Virus record (IMG/VR): IMGVR_UViG_3300045988_158256
From: a virus
Lineage: Duplodnaviria; Heunggongvirae; Uroviricota; Caudoviricetes
Length of the DNA: 64,000 nt
Reading direction: 5' to 3' (one strand)
Of the stretch, positions 54,402 through 64,000 are shown in pieces (within the stretch, counting starts at the first letter, position 1; each line of letters starts with the position of its first letter). Both the position numbers and the translations under genes were made by a program. The notes under the pieces are model-generated. The model saw nothing but the letters and a program-made list of their open reading frames with translations, made no database searches and was not told the origin of the DNA.

Positions 54402-57132
<2,731 letters not shown>

Positions 57133-57145
57133 CCATCAAAAATAA

Positions 57146-57170
57146 CCCCGGCGGCTGCCGGGGTTCTCGT
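57146..57170. terminator. terminator hairpin after pro
   Basis: CCCCGGC-ggct-GCCGGGG hairpin followed by T-rich tract. Confidence 0.55.
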
Positions 57171-57176
57171 TAACTA

Positions 57177-57431
57177 TTATCGCCTTCGTCTGCGTGCCAT
57201 ATATTTTCGCACCGCGCGACGTGGGCAATCTGAAGCGGTTTCTTTCTGCTGCATCAATCTTGCAGCCATGCTCAAAAATGTCAGGCACAGCCGAAGCCCG
57301 GCATATAATAGCGGTTCCAGTGGCCACGTCTCATTGAGCACATATACCGCCATGAAAATCGAGTCGAAAACTATCGCCGCCAGCGATAACTTCATTGTCG
57401 AAAGTCGGCGGAGCTGCCGGAGTTTATTCAT
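57177..57431 (-). CDS. small membrane protein downstream of lysozyme
   Basis: 84-aa ORF with hydrophobic segments and basic C-terminus. Confidence 0.35.
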   Translation of the reverse strand: MNKLRQLRRLSTMKLSLAAIVFDSIFMAVYVLNETWPLEPLLYAGLRLCLTFLSMAARLMQQKETASDCPRRAVRKYMARRRRR

Positions 57432-57981
57432 TGACCAGTCCCGTCAGGCAAAGCTGGCGTTCTTTTTCACGGCGAATCTTTAAACCTCGCAGGGGCACGC
57501 CGTTACTGTTCACGAAATCAGGGAGATGGTTACACATATTCACCCATTCTCCTTTCTGCGCCCACTTGTGGATGGACGTTTCTACTCGCATGCCTCGCGC
57601 TTTGCTGTAGTAGGTCCGTAAGCTATTGCATCCCATATTGAATGCCGCGCTTGTCATTGCACTGAAGGCATTATCGGGCATGTCTTTGCCCCGGAAGTGC
57701 TGATTAATACAGCGTTCAGCGATCAGGATATTCTTTTCCCAATCAGCGGCGATTTGCTGGTCTGTTTTTCGCACACCCGGCGTTACCCCGTGTGTATTAC
57801 CGATCCCGTCAGTCCATACCCCTGCCGGGCACATGTATGGATCACGTCGGCAACCTTCAGCGTTACCAATCAGCTCAAGCCCCGCCTGGTTGGTTCGCAC
57901 ATTGCCATTACCCATCACGATGGTAATCATCACCGCGATAGCGCAAATTGCACCGCCTCCTGCGGCTGTTTTTCCCTTCAT
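57424..57981 (-). CDS. lyz: T4-type lysozyme (endolysin)
   Basis: 185 aa from MKGK; Glu/Asp/Thr catalytic-type motif LELIGNAEGCRRDPYMCPAGVWTDGIGNT. Confidence 0.8.
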   Translation of the reverse strand: MKGKTAAGGGAICAIAVMITIVMGNGNVRTNQAGLELIGNAEGCRRDPYMCPAGVWTDGIGNTHGVTPGVRKTDQQIAADWEKNILIAERCINQHFRGKDMPDNAFSAMTSAAFNMGCNSLRTYYSKARGMRVETSIHKWAQKGEWVNMCNHLPDFVNSNGVPLRGLKIRREKERQLCLTGLVNE

Positions 57982-58080
57982 AAAGACCTCATAAGCGAAT
58001 TTTTTACGCTCCAGGACAAACACCCATTCACAGCCAATACCGACTGACTCGATCCCTTTAGAAGGCACAGGATAATGCAA

Positions 58081-58094
58081 ATCACTTGTTAGCT
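58081..58094 (-). promoter_or_regulatory. late-promoter-like box (minus strand AGCTAACAAGTGAT)
   Basis: ACAAGTGA motif upstream of lyz. Confidence 0.4.
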
Positions 58095-58114
58095 ACGTTT
58101 CAAAGATATACATT

Positions 58115-58131
58115 ATTGCTCTAATTATTTT
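58115..58131 (+). promoter_or_regulatory. C1 operator upstream of ssb
   Basis: ATTGCTCTAATTATTTT, 16/17. Confidence 0.6.
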
Positions 58132-58150
58132 ATTTTATTAGGTAAGAAAA

Positions 58151-58639
58151 GTGGCACAACGCGGTGTAAACAAAGTCATCCTGATTGGTACCCTGGGGCA
58201 AGACCCGGAGATCAGGTATATACCAAATGGCGGCGCGATCGGAAGACTCAGCATCGCAACGAATGAATCATGGCGCGACAAGCAAACGGGCCAACAGAAA
58301 GAGCAAACAGAATGGCATAAAGTCGTTTTGTTCGGAAAACTTGCTGAAATTGCGAGTGAGTATTTACGAAAAGGTTCTCAGGTCTACATCGAAGGGAAAC
58401 TTAAAACCCGTAAGTGGACAGATGACGCCGGTGTAGAACGTTACACGACGGAAATTATCGTCAGCCAGGGCGGCACCATGCAAATGATCGGCGCTCGCCG
58501 TGACGATTCACAGTCCTCAAATGGCTGGGGGCAATCAAACCAACCTCAAAACCACCAGCAATACAGTGGTGGCGGTAAACCTCAGAGCAACGCCAATAAC
58601 GAACCTCCAATGGACTTTGACGACGATATTCCGTTTTGA
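58151..58639 (+). CDS. ssb: single-stranded DNA-binding protein
   Basis: 162 aa; OB-fold N-terminus, Gly/Gln-rich linker, acidic tail DFDDDIPF. Confidence 0.95.
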
Positions 58640-58836
58640 ATGTGTAAAAAACGACTGAAAGAAAAGCGGTGGTCCAGACGCCGACAAAAGCACGAACTCG
58701 CAAACAAACGCCAAAGTTGGCAATGGCACGCGCTCTTCACGAAAAGAACACCCCGAGATATTGCGTTCGCTGGTGGGAAAACATTCCTGACCCACCTGAA
58801 GGCGCAATACATCAGGTTTTAAGCAGAGGAAAGACT

Positions 58837-59514
58837 ATGAATAACATGACAACGAAAGAGCTTTTGACGGCACTTCCAAAATACAAAAGCCATAAAACAG
58901 TTCGCGCCTCAAAAATCAAAGATATCGAAATTATCGCCCTAATGGATGTGGTCCTTTTTTGCAACATCGAAGTCGTTGAGCCAGAAGGGGTAAAAGTCCA
59001 TGTTGATAAAATATTTTTGCAAAAACACCGACCAGAAATTGGCGGATATCTGGTCGCTTATGAGGACGGATCTCTGTCCTATTCACCAGAAAAAACATTT
59101 GAAGAAGGCTTTAGTCGGACTAACGACTTCTTCGAAAATGGGGTATCGCTCAGCATTGAAGGTCACAATGGGGTGACATTCATTACAGCCAGGGACGTAA
59201 CTATTTCTGCTGGCGGTATCGCTACTCTACAAGAAGAAATCGACCTTGAAGCAGCCGACTTTTCTGACGCGCTGATGTGGCTGAAGGATGGCAAGAAAGT
59301 TGCCCGACGCGGGTGGAACGGCGAAAACCAATTCTGCTGGCTGGTTCCTGAAGGACAGTACCCGGCACGAATGGAAGCCATTAAGGGATATTTCCCCGGC
59401 GACCTCGTTCCGTATGGTGCTTATTTCGCCTTAAAAAATGCACAAGGTGTAGTTGTTCCGTGGGTTCCTTCTGTAGGCGACTTACTGGCATGTGACTGGT
59501 TTGTAGTGGAGTGA
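58837..59514 (+). CDS. two-domain protein with DUF2829 (Tad2-like) C-terminal domain
   Basis: 225 aa from MNNMTTKELL (GAGGAAAG SD); C-terminal ALMWLKDGKKVARRGWNGENQF ... YGAYFALKNAQGVVVPWVPSVGDLLACDWFVV fits DUF2829 pattern. Confidence 0.5.
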   Translation: MNNMTTKELLTALPKYKSHKTVRASKIKDIEIIALMDVVLFCNIEVVEPEGVKVHVDKIFLQKHRPEIGGYLVAYEDGSLSYSPEKTFEEGFSRTNDFFENGVSLSIEGHNGVTFITARDVTISAGGIATLQEEIDLEAADFSDALMWLKDGKKVARRGWNGENQFCWLVPEGQYPARMEAIKGYFPGDLVPYGAYFALKNAQGVVVPWVPSVGDLLACDWFVVE

Positions 59515-59520
59515 TTTAAC

Positions 59521-60303
59521 GTGGAAAATACTAAAGCAATTCAATACCGCCTGCGTAATGGTCAGAGTGTCGAAGTGACCATCAATCATGATGGTGTGCC
59601 TGGCGAAAAGGTTTCGATCTCTGCTCTGGCTATCGAAAAAACCATCATGTGCCACCTTGGCTTTACTGAAGAAGTGAGCAAAAAGCATGGTGTAGCAATC
59701 TGGAGCGCAATGGATACTGGTATGCGCAGATTCATTACTGCTCGTACCCCAGGGATGACCATGATGGACCTCATGCAGATTGCGCCGCTGTTTGAATGTG
59801 AGCCTTTAGATGTATTCAGCAATCCAGCTATCTGCCAGCAGCTATATGGTGAGATGAAACTCGCGGTTACCCCCATTGTGCTGCATGAAGGATCGCTTGC
59901 TGGCGTGTGGAAAGTGGAGCGTATTTCAAGCTACATGCCTTTCCATGTCAACGGCGTAATCACTGGTGAAAATCAACCTGTTTCCGTTATAAAGTCAGAC
60001 CTCAAGCGCGCAATTCTTGAAGCAAGTTGTCGAGTTGTCGGCCTGGGCAAACAGTCTTATGTTTCCTTCCCGGCTGGCCCTGAAGGCCCGGCAGAAATTC
60101 TGATTATGGATGCCGATCTGCTCTGGCAAATACAGTTTCTGATTGGCAAAAGCATCATCCGCGCTGAAGAACTCGATCAGTACATTACCTGCACGATGAC
60201 GGATGAAGTCAAAAGTGTGGCTATAGCCAATGCCCGGAACCTATGTCGTGCTGCATTAACAGAACTGCAAGAAAACACCACGGAAGAAGTGGAAAGCGAT
60301 TAA
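59521..60303 (+). CDS. hypothetical protein
   Basis: 260-aa ORF, GTG start, followed by bidirectional terminator. Confidence 0.45.
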   Translation: MENTKAIQYRLRNGQSVEVTINHDGVPGEKVSISALAIEKTIMCHLGFTEEVSKKHGVAIWSAMDTGMRRFITARTPGMTMMDLMQIAPLFECEPLDVFSNPAICQQLYGEMKLAVTPIVLHEGSLAGVWKVERISSYMPFHVNGVITGENQPVSVIKSDLKRAILEASCRVVGLGKQSYVSFPAGPEGPAEILIMDADLLWQIQFLIGKSIIRAEELDQYITCTMTDEVKSVAIANARNLCRAALTELQENTTEEVESD

Positions 60304-60335
60304 AAAAAATCCCGCCGACTGGCGGGATTTCTTCA
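60304..60335. terminator. bidirectional terminator
   Basis: A8, TCCCGCC-gact-GGCGGGA hairpin, T-run. Confidence 0.7.
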
Positions 60336-60644
60336 ATATACGATCTGGTCTACATGATCACCAAAATCATCGTCGTCGTCGTCCTCATCGCCACCATCTA
60401 CTGCTGGCCAATCAACAAACCAGCCAGCGTAAAGATGCAGCGTTCGGAGAACATCACTTGCGGGAGCATCAAGGGTGTTAACGAATCCCATATAGCTATT
60501 GGGATTTGCCCCAGCTATGGCTTCAGCGATCATGTCCTCGGTAATGTCACCGGAGATAATGCTTAAACGCCCGGAAACTTCTTCATTATCATCAAATTCG
60601 ATAATGGCATCTCCACCTAATGGCGCTGCGATTTTAATCTGCAT
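60333..60644 (-). CDS. small acidic protein downstream of ddrB-like gene
   Basis: 103-aa ORF with poly-Asp stretch; overlaps upstream gene end. Confidence 0.4.
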   Translation of the reverse strand: MQIKIAAPLGGDAIIEFDDNEEVSGRLSIISGDITEDMIAEAIAGANPNSYMGFVNTLDAPASDVLRTLHLYAGWFVDWPAVDGGDEDDDDDDFGDHVDQIVY

Positions 60645-63621
60645 TATTTAGCTCCTTTGCCACACCTAATAACAGTTCCAGCAATCCGTCACCATTCATC
60701 AGTGATGCGGCAGCGGCCTCTTTGTCATGATACAACTGAAGAGCCATAGAGAATACTTCCGTTGCTGACGTTTTGGAAATAGTCGGTGATTTCTGCCGAA
60801 TTTTCCCGGTGTTACTTACTGAGGCTGGCGGGTATACCTTCGCCATATAAATATTACTCAATCGAGATCTGAAGCACCATTCAGGCTTGCCACGCCCACC
60901 GATATTGACGAAAGATGGCTTATCCCCTTCAACATTGGCCTTCAGGAATGACCGGGCTTTCTCTAACAAACCAGGGTTACTGTACTCAAGATGATGACCC
61001 AGCTCGTGCCACAGTGCACTTGCATTTTCATCGTTCAAATTGACAGCAACAACACCATTAAGATTTGCATATGCCCTTCCCTGGTGGTGAACTACCTTTG
61101 ATAAGGTCGATATTTTCCCGCCGGTCAGGCGATAAATATCAGCAAGTTCCTTGCGCAGGTCTATCCCACCATTCTGTCCAGCGCGGACTTCTTCCACTTC
61201 TTCTGTGATAAAAGAGTCGGCCCACTCAAGAGCTTTTTCTTCAGATACGGATGAGTTTGCGATCGCACTGTTCATGGCAGATAACACTTTCTCGTGGACC
61301 GAACCCATACTTCGCTGATTCATTTGCCAGCGTATCTGCGGGTTATATGAGAATCGCTTAAGTAGTTGGTCAAGCTGCTCAAGTTCTTCTTCACTGACAT
61401 ACTTTTTAGCCTCACCAATAATGCCAGGGAGAATATTGCCGTTAGGATTAAACGCTCGCGAAAGGAAGAGTTTCAGCGCCCCCATGCCCTCCGATGCTTC
61501 AATATCACCAATAACCCGGTTAACAATGGCCGCACTCTTCGGATTAGCATCCGCCAACGCTCTGGCTACGATTTGCAGGGACGATACGACCTCACGCTGC
61601 ATATCAGTCCTGATCTCATCAATAAACTCTGGCGTTATGCCGTGCTCTTTAAGAATATCCCGGCCTTCCGCCGTTACCCCATCGATATCACCGACATGTT
61701 TATTAACACGACTTTGCAATGCCTTAAATGCCTTCAGAATTCCACGGGCATCATCCGCTTTACTAACGGCCTTCCTGAATGCTGGCAAGAAGTCTGAGTT
61801 AACCTCATTTTGTTGATCGGCCCACTGAATGGAGGCTTCTTTCATCTCGTCCAGAGTCAGATCACCCAACGCGGTATGGTCTGTGAATATGAGCGACAAC
61901 CTCTGAACCATTTCTGCCAATGGTGATGCCGAATGCGCCGCGCTAAGGAATGCTTTCACCCTGGTTGGGCGAATGGAAAACCAGTCAATAGCTGGTGGCA
62001 TATCTCCGTTTTTTATCGCCTGCGCTATCTCGTCAAAGCCATCGCGCCCAAGGGAGGATGCGTGATTTAACAAGCCGCGAAGTAACGAATTGCTGATACC
62101 GAATAATCGGCACCATTTTTTCACGTCGGCAACAGGCATTCGAACAAAATGCGCAAGCACTTGTACAAGCTGTTCATCCTGGGGATCTGTGCGGGAAAGC
62201 AGCCTGATCAGATGAATAATGTCTTTGATGCCGGATGCCCGATGTAATAGCAAACTGGTATACGGAGCAACACCGTTGTAACTACCGCCGGAAACGGACT
62301 CGAAAAGACCGCCGGATATCCCTTGCATGCCTTCGTTTTCCAGTTCCTGAGACACCTGGCGAAGGATATCCTGTAACGACACATCACCACCGCCAAACAT
62401 ATCCCCCAGCGCCTGGCCCTGGTGCTGTAACTCATCATTGATACGTTGAGCCATCAATTTAAAGGCGGTGGCCATACGCTTCGCGCTACGGTTATTCGCG
62501 ACGATGAACAACGCGAGTGCTTTCACTTCCGGGGCCGTTTCGCTGAACATATCCCCCTGAGCAATAACATCGGTAATATGCTGGCCTGACTCCTTCGATT
62601 GCCTTACCAGGTCTACCGCATCTTTCAATGCCGCCAGCGCCTTTTTATCGAGGCTATCCGCTGTCTCAATGCCATCAACAATAGTTGTCACAGCCTGCTT
62701 GTGCGCTTCTCCTGATAAAGCCTGCATCTGGACAAAATCATTGGCTGCCGCATTAAGCGCCGTCAGAACATTACGCATATCCGGATCAGGTTCTTCTGCA
62801 ACCATCCTTACCAGGCGCGCATCCTTATATGCCTTGGCAAAGATCGCGTTTTGTATACGGTCTACAAGTTGCCGTGTTGGTCGCCCATCTTCAGTTACAA
62901 GGCCAGCCGCCTGTGTGGCACCAACTTGCGTCATAAATCCGCGAATAAACGCGTCATTACTGCGGCTAAGCAGATCTCCACTTTCTGACGGGTTAAACAA
63001 CGCCATCATCGCCGGTGTTATGCTGTCGGCATCAACAAAAGCCTTTTCACTGGCTGCCATTTCCTGGAGATCAGAAATATTTGAGTCCTTGGCAAACTGA
63101 ACACGGTCAACCTTAGTTAACCGGCGGCGCACCAGTACCGGAGCCGTCATTGATTCAACCTTTTCAGGAGGTATGCCGAATTCGGTCGCATGTTCAATCA
63201 GGTACTCACGATACCGATCCGCATTGCCGTCCTGATAGGCTTTGATGATCCCCATGGTCCGTCCATTACCTGACTCAACGGCATTGTCCTCACCAATTAT
63301 CGGCGCGCCATGGCTGGATAAACCGGAATCAGTAAGCTGAGCAGGCCGCAAATCTTTGGATATCTGGTTAACCTGAAGAAGGCTGGATGCGCGGGTCCGG
63401 TCGCGCGGTTGAAGTTCCTGGGGATAGTCAGGATTAATTTTCCCATCCAGAGTATTGGATACCAAAAGAGCTGAGGCATCGACGATATCAAACGCTGTTT
63501 TTACCTCGTCTCCCTTCGCTGTCACCACATACGAAACCCGCCCATAATCGGGCAGGTTCTTTAGCAGCTCGATCAGCGTTTCTATGCTGGTGGCCATTAC
63601 CACCTGATCGCTTAAGCTCAT
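60634..63621 (-). CDS. ddrB: large Dar-operon protein (DdrB-like)
   Basis: 995-aa ORF on darA-operon strand; name assigned by size and position only. Confidence 0.5.
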   Translation of the reverse strand: MSLSDQVVMATSIETLIELLKNLPDYGRVSYVVTAKGDEVKTAFDIVDASALLVSNTLDGKINPDYPQELQPRDRTRASSLLQVNQISKDLRPAQLTDSGLSSHGAPIIGEDNAVESGNGRTMGIIKAYQDGNADRYREYLIEHATEFGIPPEKVESMTAPVLVRRRLTKVDRVQFAKDSNISDLQEMAASEKAFVDADSITPAMMALFNPSESGDLLSRSNDAFIRGFMTQVGATQAAGLVTEDGRPTRQLVDRIQNAIFAKAYKDARLVRMVAEEPDPDMRNVLTALNAAANDFVQMQALSGEAHKQAVTTIVDGIETADSLDKKALAALKDAVDLVRQSKESGQHITDVIAQGDMFSETAPEVKALALFIVANNRSAKRMATAFKLMAQRINDELQHQGQALGDMFGGGDVSLQDILRQVSQELENEGMQGISGGLFESVSGGSYNGVAPYTSLLLHRASGIKDIIHLIRLLSRTDPQDEQLVQVLAHFVRMPVADVKKWCRLFGISNSLLRGLLNHASSLGRDGFDEIAQAIKNGDMPPAIDWFSIRPTRVKAFLSAAHSASPLAEMVQRLSLIFTDHTALGDLTLDEMKEASIQWADQQNEVNSDFLPAFRKAVSKADDARGILKAFKALQSRVNKHVGDIDGVTAEGRDILKEHGITPEFIDEIRTDMQREVVSSLQIVARALADANPKSAAIVNRVIGDIEASEGMGALKLFLSRAFNPNGNILPGIIGEAKKYVSEEELEQLDQLLKRFSYNPQIRWQMNQRSMGSVHEKVLSAMNSAIANSSVSEEKALEWADSFITEEVEEVRAGQNGGIDLRKELADIYRLTGGKISTLSKVVHHQGRAYANLNGVVAVNLNDENASALWHELGHHLEYSNPGLLEKARSFLKANVEGDKPSFVNIGGRGKPEWCFRSRLSNIYMAKVYPPASVSNTGKIRQKSPTISKTSATEVFSMALQLYHDKEAAAASLMNGDGLLELLLGVAKELNNAD

Positions 63622-63630
63622 CCCTGTTAC

Positions 63631-64000
63631 GCCTTATCCAATGTGCCGCCCCCTACGCTCCTCATAGTGGGGATATAAGGCACAGTTTTCCTCCCGGCTA
63701 TTTTTGCTTAAAATAGTGACATGAAACAACAGGTGTCATTCAAATTCCGGTTAAAACCAGATGGTCAACAGGAGCGTCAAATGAGGCGCTTTGCCGGAGC
63801 TTGTCGTTTCGTTTTCAACCGTGCTCTGGCGCTTCAGAATGAGAATCATGAGGCCGGTAAAAAATACATCCCTTACACGAAAATGGCTTCCTGGTTGGTT
63901 GAGTGGAAAAAAGACACTGAAACCGAATGGCTTAAAGATTCTCCCTCACAGCCATTGCAACAGTCACTGAAAGACCTTGAGCGGGCTTACAAAAACTTCT
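63631..64000 (+). mobile_element. IS200/IS605-family element, left end and 5-prime part (truncated by window)
   Basis: Starts just 3-prime of TTAC (63627-63630); imperfect subterminal hairpin CCCCTACGCTCCTCATAGTGGGG; TnpB ORF from 63721. Confidence 0.65.
63721..64000 (+). CDS. tnpB: TnpB (RNA-guided nuclease, IS200/IS605 accessory protein), N-terminal fragment
   Basis: MKQQVSFKFRLKPDGQQERQMRRFAGACRFVFNRALAL ... LQQSLKDLERAYKNF aligns with TnpB/OrfB N-terminus; open to window end. Confidence 0.75.
   Translation, partial: MKQQVSFKFRLKPDGQQERQMRRFAGACRFVFNRALALQNENHEAGKKYIPYTKMASWLVEWKKDTETEWLKDSPSQPLQQSLKDLERAYKNF

Follow-up and report, generated by a model that had tools for sequence, protein, structure and literature searches.

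The closing segment of the window (the whole stretch of viral DNA analysed here, 64,000 nucleotides) raises the question of what kind of DNA lies immediately upstream of a ddrB-like gene, where exactly it begins, and whether it silences that gene. A first-pass annotation, made from the letters of the window, had read it as an IS200/IS605-type TnpB element. We find that the insertion upstream of ddrB is real, since related genomes have the corresponding empty site, but that its lineage is IS609 and its flank is TTAT. It is very probable, in our judgement, that the window ends within the left part of a 1,335-bp, non-autonomous, tnpA-less IS200/IS605 element of the IS609 lineage, which entered a P1-like ancestor in one insertion 3' of TTAT, is probably immobile, and is predicted to cut vacant copies of its own insertion site.

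The last 601 bases of the window are 100% identical to Escherichia phage RCS47 (FO818745.1) and 97-99% identical to phages vB_EcoM-813R1 and SJ46; the window end is also 100% identical to many P1-like plasmids. The closest record found in the E. coli and plasmid collections was E. coli plasmid CP088415.1, with 99.6% identity over window positions 56000-64000 and complete identity over 63638-64000; in its element, a single one of the 1,335 bases is different from RCS47. About 972 bp of the element lie past the window end: the remaining 929 bp of tnpB, the omega-RNA region and a right end of 43 bp. Hence, the right end and the omega-RNA region, being outside the window, were taken from relatives that are identical to it over 63638-64000.

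Comparison with uninterrupted P1-like genomes revealed an insert of 1,335 bp between ddrB and ddrA of a P1-like phage-plasmid. In P1, P7 and other P1-like genomes that lack the insert, the match to the window ends at 63637. Alignment of occupied and empty sites therefore sets the junction at 63637/63638, with 63638 as the first base of the insert. The features of the region are as follows, with a slash marking the junction in the two site sequences.

60634..63621, minus strand: ddrB, 995 aa, start codon at 63619-63621, Pfam ddrB-ParB (E = 1.9e-39)
63622..63637: native P1 stretch between ddrB and the insert, identical to P1-like empty sites
63627..63630, plus strand: TTAC, a family-type motif 7 bp off the true junction
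63634..63637, plus strand: TTAT, the target or transposon-adjacent motif at the left end, placed by junction mapping
63638..63720, plus strand: left end of the element, 83 bp
63721..64000, plus strand: tnpB (insQ), codons 1-93 of 402, cut by the window end
Empty site: ...GCTCAT CCCTGTTACGCCTTAT/GCTGCCTCTTTAATG...
Occupied site: ...CCTTAT/CCAATGTGCC...(1,335 bp)...GGAGGATGTCAC/GCTGCCTC...

The left end of the insert thus adjoins TTAT, and the insert starts 16 bp upstream of the ddrB start codon. The first-pass annotation had instead placed the insertion 3' of TTAC (63627-63630), with a boundary at 63631, 9 bp upstream of the ddrB start, and had begun the element region at 63622. The TTAC motif is present, but the proposed boundary is 7 bp off, and positions 63622-63637 are 16 bp of native P1 sequence; this stretch includes the orphaned old stop codon of ddrA (TTA at 63634-63636, TAA on the minus strand). 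The proposed rule was nevertheless close to that of the family, since the left-end flank among family members is usually TTAT (14/21) and sometimes TTAC (4/21). P1, P7 and the three other P1-like replicons taken into the empty-site comparison all read TTAT/GCTGCC, as compared with TTAT/(1,335 bp)/GCTGCC in the occupied state; hence, there is no target-site duplication. With more of the flanks, the occupied junctions read CCTTAT/CCAATG...GATGTCAC/GCTGCC and the empty one CCTTAT/GCTGCC.

Differences from RCS47 show that the window derives from another P1-like replicon. The two ddrB genes differ at 44 of 2,988 bases, and an ISSod13-family transposase insertion between isaA and hxr in RCS47 is absent from the window (59521-60644, as compared with L001, the RCS47 locus, 915-3245).

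The complete element, read from RCS47 (L001 6239-7573), consists of the 83-bp left end, tnpB and a 43-bp right end. In these relatives, full-length tnpB is 1,209 bp and encodes 402 aa. The first-pass annotation had the TnpB N-terminus at 63721, and an ATG does open the TnpB frame at that position. The full protein has three Pfam domains, HTH_OrfB_IS605, OrfB_IS605 and Cas12f1-like_TNB (E = 1.6e-16, 1.5e-34 and 2.4e-24, respectively), and matches ISDra2 TnpB (8EXA/8BF8) with E = 9e-52; both tests were run on the full protein, of which residues 1-93 fall inside the window. D183, E267 and D363 align with acidic residues of ISDra2 TnpB, such that the RuvC residues are intact, and C334, C337, C353 and C356 align with its cysteines, leaving the zinc-finger residues intact as well. 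By its sequence, TnpB looks catalytically competent. A comparison of tnpB between RCS47 and SJ46 gave a dS of 0.098, a dN of 0.019 and a dN/dS of 0.19; the gene is under purifying selection. The first-pass annotation had also seen no tnpA between the left end and tnpB, and we detected none there or anywhere else in the complete 1,335-bp element; it is this Y1 HUH transposase that an autonomous member would need.

The gene itself is already in public records, as "insQ, transposase IS605" in RCS47 and as "IS200/IS605 family transposase IS609" in 813R1; the insertion is not discussed in the SJ46 paper or in the P1 Dar papers. The closest known element is IS609 of E. coli, whose tnpB is the chromosomal insQ (ydcM). 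Over element positions 100-1334 the tnpB DNA is ~95% identical, and the TnpB protein is ~92% identical to that of chromosomal insQ. The two share the type of right end (GGAGGATGTCA), the head of the left end, the GGGGATATAAGG motif and the TTAT flank. They differ in that, in chromosomal IS609 of the K-12 type, the left end is separated from insQ by a tnpA that is divergent and, in that copy, defective, whereas the P1-borne element lacks the divergent tnpA; in addition, the P1-borne element has GCCCCCTACGCTCCTCATAGT in place of GTAAAACCCCGTCCTTCAGGGC, C rather than A as its last base, and one known site. An IS609 TnpB has been purified in one 2026 study, from whose text we obtained no TAM.

To place the ends of the element within the family, we scanned one genome per species and recovered 80 loci, in Escherichia, Citrobacter, Serratia, Morganella, Photorhabdus, Xenorhabdus, Klebsiella and more distant groups. 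In 50 other loci of distinct sequence, from many genera, the right end is GGAGGATGTCAA, followed by unrelated DNA. By contrast, the P1-borne copies all end in ...GTCAC, giving the terminus TCAC where the family has TCAA; the right-end motif GGAGGATGTCA is conserved, and the right-end hairpin, CCACGCCC-TTCG-GGGCGTGG, is perfect and stable (z = -4.4). The family left end starts with C(C/A)NNTG(C/T)GCCG. Its head, CCAATGTGCCG, is conserved in the P1-borne copy, as is the motif GGGGATATAAGG, at 63669-63680. The canonical left-end segment GTAAAACCCCGTCCTTCAGGGC, which is conserved from E. coli to Serratia, is swapped in the P1-borne copy for GCCCCCTACGCTCCTCATAGT (GCTCCCCACGCGCCTCATAGT in SJ46), with both flanking sequences kept. 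In the family, the left-end hairpin serves as the TnpA binding site and resembles that of the right end. The canonical left hairpin, CCCCGTCC-TTCA-GGGCGGGG, is exchanged for a different, weaker one. In the DNA fold, this substitute has 6 pairs (63650-63656 with 63667-63672), a bulged T at 63654 and a 10-nt loop, and an outer stem (63642-63647 with 63679-63684) encloses the inner hairpin, 63650-63672. The imperfect subterminal hairpin with a bulged T that the first-pass annotation had described was therefore recovered in the fold, but its energy in the window is indistinguishable from that of shuffled sequences (z = -1.24), as compared with z = -3.26 for the SJ46 version.

In IS608, each hairpin is preceded on its 5' side by short guide bases through which the cleavage sites are recognised. 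By analogy, which we offer as a lead only, the A-run that is missing from the P1-borne left end may have been such a guide. The P1-borne copy is probably no longer mobile, because it encodes no transposase, its left hairpin and the adjacent A-rich segment have been replaced, and its terminus has changed from TCAA to TCAC. The changed left end might nevertheless still be usable by a TnpA.

The mechanistic models, IS608 of Helicobacter pylori and ISDra2 of Deinococcus radiodurans, resemble the P1-borne element in inserting 3' of a tetra- or pentanucleotide, in the absence of a target duplication, in their subterminal hairpins and in the TnpB fold family. IS608 has TTAC as its left flank and TCAA as its terminus; TCAA is also the terminus of the IS609-type family. 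The differences are that the P1-borne target is TTAT and tnpA is absent, that the tnpA of IS609 is divergent rather than co-directional, and that the proteins are only distantly related. Another parallel is provided by tnpB-only IS605-family elements (the IS1341-type organisation). One of these, on E. coli plasmid NZ_CP063156.1, has the same order of left end, short leader, tnpB and right end, with a homologous leader upstream of the ATG, but differs in having the canonical left-end hairpin, a TCAA terminus and an unrelated plasmid site. Overall, the TnpB domains, target motif, lack of duplication and omega-RNA region of the P1-borne element are those of IS200/IS605, and it deviates from the family (IS609) in its left hairpin, its terminal base, its lack of tnpA and its single-site distribution.

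That distribution was determined in several collections. A search of one genome from each of 185,579 species yielded no exact match to a 25-mer of the P1-type left end. In PLSDB, 75 records have the P1-type left end at ≥80% coverage; those listed are ~94-146 kb in size, and those examined have it at the same ddrB/ddrA site. We found the element at this site in every copy examined, namely RCS47, SJ46, 813R1, CP088415, a Salmonella plasmid and an E. albertii plasmid, and the ddrB-side flank was identical in 12/12 matches from IMG/VR and 5/5 from metagenomes. No second site for the P1-type left end was detected in 5,426 E. coli genomes, 72,556 plasmids, the 185,579 species genomes, IMG/VR or the metagenome collection; the wider family, unlike the P1-type left end, is multi-copy. 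In complete E. coli genomes, the ddrA/ddrB junction is present in 464 records, with 390 uninterrupted and ~74 split. Carriers cannot be told from non-carriers by their flank polymorphisms, which are mosaic, a pattern compatible alike with vertical descent plus recombination and with homing. In MH422554, a P1-like genome with an empty site, the sequence of the left flank is exactly that of the RCS47 type. The sequences point to one insertion event as the likely origin, followed by inheritance and recombination among P1-like replicons.

These data bear on two other readings of the element. According to the first, the element is still mobile in trans: an IS609 TnpA encoded by the host chromosome would excise and re-insert it, and TnpB would serve only to restore it after excision. 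Most tnpB elements of the IS605 family are non-autonomous and mobilised in trans, the absence of tnpA being normal among them (bioRxiv 10.1101/2023.03.14.532601), and tnpA-less relatives with canonical ends occupy varied plasmid and chromosomal sites. The empty MH422554, with its RCS47-type left flank, is also what a scarless excision product would look like, as would a pre-insertion relative. We nonetheless consider trans-mobilisation unlikely, given that the P1-type left end has no second site in any of the five collections searched, and that its left-hairpin segment and terminal base depart from a strongly conserved consensus. According to the second, tnpB is not part of an IS but belongs to the phage, either as a native or as a domesticated gene, such as one for a nuclease-dead TldR-like regulator. 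The occurrence of all copies with the P1-type left end at one site, the purifying selection on tnpB at that site and the apparent immobility of the element would all fit. However, the element has IS609-type ends on both sides, and the site is cleanly empty in most P1-like replicons. Nuclease-dead TldR-like proteins have lost RuvC catalytic residues or part of the C-terminus, and their guide is set on a host promoter. By contrast, the P1-borne TnpB keeps the RuvC D/E/D residues, the zinc-finger cysteines and its full length of 402 aa, and remains ~92% identical to chromosomal insQ; its predicted guide is mere flanking DNA from the insertion, as in any IS605-family element. The IS ends, empty sites and intact catalytic residues led us to reject a native gene or TldR-like derivative, which we regard as highly improbable.

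Two records depart from the common pattern. Metagenome contig SKEB01000180.1 (L107, reverse strand 1-2600) has the same ddrB-side junction and the P1-type left end, and a canonical right end, ...GTCAA, which continues into E. coli chromosomal sequence (ytfB / TetR-family regulator), where chromosomal insQ copies are found. Either the P1-borne copy recombined with an IS609-family copy on the chromosome, or the assembly of this contig is chimeric across the repeat. In vB_EcoM-813R1 (L008 1236-5528), the annotation gives ddrB as two coding sequences and tnpB and darA as shortened, and the C-run of the left end is 1 nt shorter; these differences more probably reflect homopolymer sequencing errors than real decay.

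The gene adjoining the insertion, which the first-pass annotation had described as ddrB-like, is annotated as DdrB in RCS47 and P1, and its ddrB-ParB domain agrees with this. It is the first gene downstream of the insertion in the direction of the operon. The insertion does separate ddrB from its upstream operon partners, as had been proposed: 1,335 bp stand between ddrB and ddrA in the occupied arrangement relative to the empty one. For ddrA, the junction falls between the second and third base of the last codon, changing GC/A TAA to GC-G TGA, with G-TGA contributed by the right end (...GTCAC). Because the right end rebuilds GCG-TGA, the terminal alanine and stop are restored and DdrA is unchanged, its C-terminus reading ...NIKEAA* with and without the insert. 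For ddrB, 16 nt of upstream sequence are retained, including AAGG, a sequence resembling a ribosome-binding site. The distance from the ddrA stop to the ddrB start is 12 nt in vacant genomes and ~1.35 kb with the insert, such that the close spacing is lost, and 1.3 kb of antisense tnpB lie in between. On the operon strand, the element has stop codons in 3/3 frames and a longest open stretch of 93 codons.

A polar effect on ddrB is therefore possible. Its strongest form would be an active, IS608-like insertion 3' of TTAC, at 63630/63631, that switches off ddrB and the downstream anti-restriction operon. In favour of this reading, the insert parts ddrB from ddrA and the operon promoter, the translational proximity of the two genes is lost, and the stops in all operon-strand frames make Rho-dependent polarity conceivable. 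On the other hand, the true junction is beside TTAT, the insert persists in ~74 of the 464 E. coli records with the junction, and terminator signal does not exceed chance, scans for promoters and terminators across the element having given counts at shuffle expectation. Moreover, wherever the sequence of a carrier is reliable, ddrB has its full length, and its dN/dS among carriers (the window, RCS47 and SJ46) is 0.05-0.19, similar to that in comparisons of carriers with non-carriers. The intact ddrB and low dN/dS in carriers thus argue against silencing, although recombination with non-carriers weakens this point somewhat. We consider polar inactivation distinctly unlikely. With low dN/dS in both genes and ddrB at full length, tnpB and ddrB look functional in carriers, and expression of ddrB presumably continues. 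A recent P1 paper reports that sensitivity to EcoB and EcoK is affected by DdrB, Ulx and DarB, and that the Dar proteins are packaged in order; an altered dosage of ddrB could bring a phenotype.

One sigma-70-like match (ATGACA, 18 nt, TATTTT) lies on the minus strand at window positions 63710-63739 (L001 6340-6311), at the 5' end of tnpB and directed outward toward ddrB. It is only a candidate for an element-borne promoter, since the total number of such matches equals shuffle expectation. With counts at chance, neither this site nor a weak minus-strand stem (L001 6956-6941) was taken as evidence.

If the element is an IS609-lineage insertion with a competent TnpB, an omega RNA would be expected at its 3' end. 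We used RNAalifold on the last 170 nt of 28 family members, including the P1-borne element, and obtained 41 pairs, of which 13 have compensatory changes, although the covariation is harder to read because part of the covarying region is coding sequence. The covarying parts include the terminal hairpin, a stem that is CAGGC/GCCTG in some members and CAGAC/GTCTG in others, and a long-range pairing of ACATTT with GGATGT. In Rfam, HgcC (22.6 bits), sot0042 and RAGATH-18 matched at the same place, all below their gathering scores. The predicted structure fits an omega RNA that overlaps the 3' end of tnpB and the right end. The predicted guide, GCTGCCTCTTTAATGTTG, is taken from the flank immediately beyond the right end. 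Its predicted target, TTAT-GCTGCCTCTTTAATGT, corresponds to the vacant junction, which is perfectly conserved in P1, P7 and the other empty sites examined; the match is perfect for at least 18 nt next to TTAT at five vacant sites (MH422554, P7, P1 and two E. coli plasmids). The arrangement of TTAT plus guide exists only at vacant sites, and we found no such match with up to 3 mismatches within the 64-kb window. The occupied locus is predicted to be protected from TnpB, because GTCAC, not TTAT, precedes the guide match there.

Taken together with the anatomy and with what is known of the family, these observations suggest the following course for the IS609-lineage insertion. The element would have entered a single time, into an ancestor from which one sublineage of P1-like phage-plasmids descends; an IS609 TnpA supplied in trans would have integrated it 3' of TTAT by single-strand peel-and-paste. 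The cassette would now be fixed, non-autonomous and inherited with the phage-plasmid. Its omega RNA, with guide GCTGCCTCTTTAATGTTG, would lead TnpB to cut vacant TTAT/GCTGCC... sites, as inferred from the work of Meers et al. (bioRxiv 10.1101/2023.03.14.532601), and cutting would allow the insert to be restored or spread by homologous recombination, as for other IS605-family elements in experiments. Predicted vacant-site cutting would therefore restore the insert after excision, and could act on co-resident or incoming relatives of P1.

Homing by TnpB and omega RNA has been shown for IS605-family elements of Geobacillus stearothermophilus (Meers et al., bioRxiv 10.1101/2023.03.14.532601). The vacant site of the P1-like replicons, TTAT plus the right-end flank, has exactly the donor-joint architecture that TnpB targets in that system; the difference is that the carrier is a low-copy phage-plasmid, with vacant sites located mostly on other P1-like replicons and not on sister chromosomes. 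A bolder proposal is that the immobilised TnpB/omega-RNA cassette persists in P1-like phage-plasmids as a nuclease for homing, gene drive or exclusion, cutting the vacant ddrA/ddrB junction (TTAT plus GCTGCCTCTTTAATGTTG). If so, co-resident or superinfecting relatives would be converted to carriers by recombination, or eliminated. We put this forward tentatively, as an unlikely possibility.

As biology, the insertion is a routine one for the IS605 family. For annotation, the comparison gives exact ends to an element listed publicly only as a gene, with ddrA undamaged and ddrB displaced but conserved. Its wider reach is that an RNA-guided nuclease, apparently competent, is carried by a phage-plasmid and is predicted to target the vacant allele of that phage-plasmid's relatives. 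Thus, the locus offers a simple test case for TnpB homing between phage-plasmids.

A minor difference among the P1-borne copies concerns the tip of the right-end hairpin, which is inverted in L001 (7545-7564) relative to L007, L005 and L006; the corresponding window positions, by extrapolation, would be ~64944-64963, beyond the window end. The RCS47 type reads CCAC-G-CCCTTCGGGG-C-GTGG, and the version common to SJ46, pTB502 and E. albertii reads CCAC-A-CCCCGAAGGG-C-GTGG. The inversion looks like a quasi-palindrome template-switch change inside the predicted 3' stem of the omega RNA.
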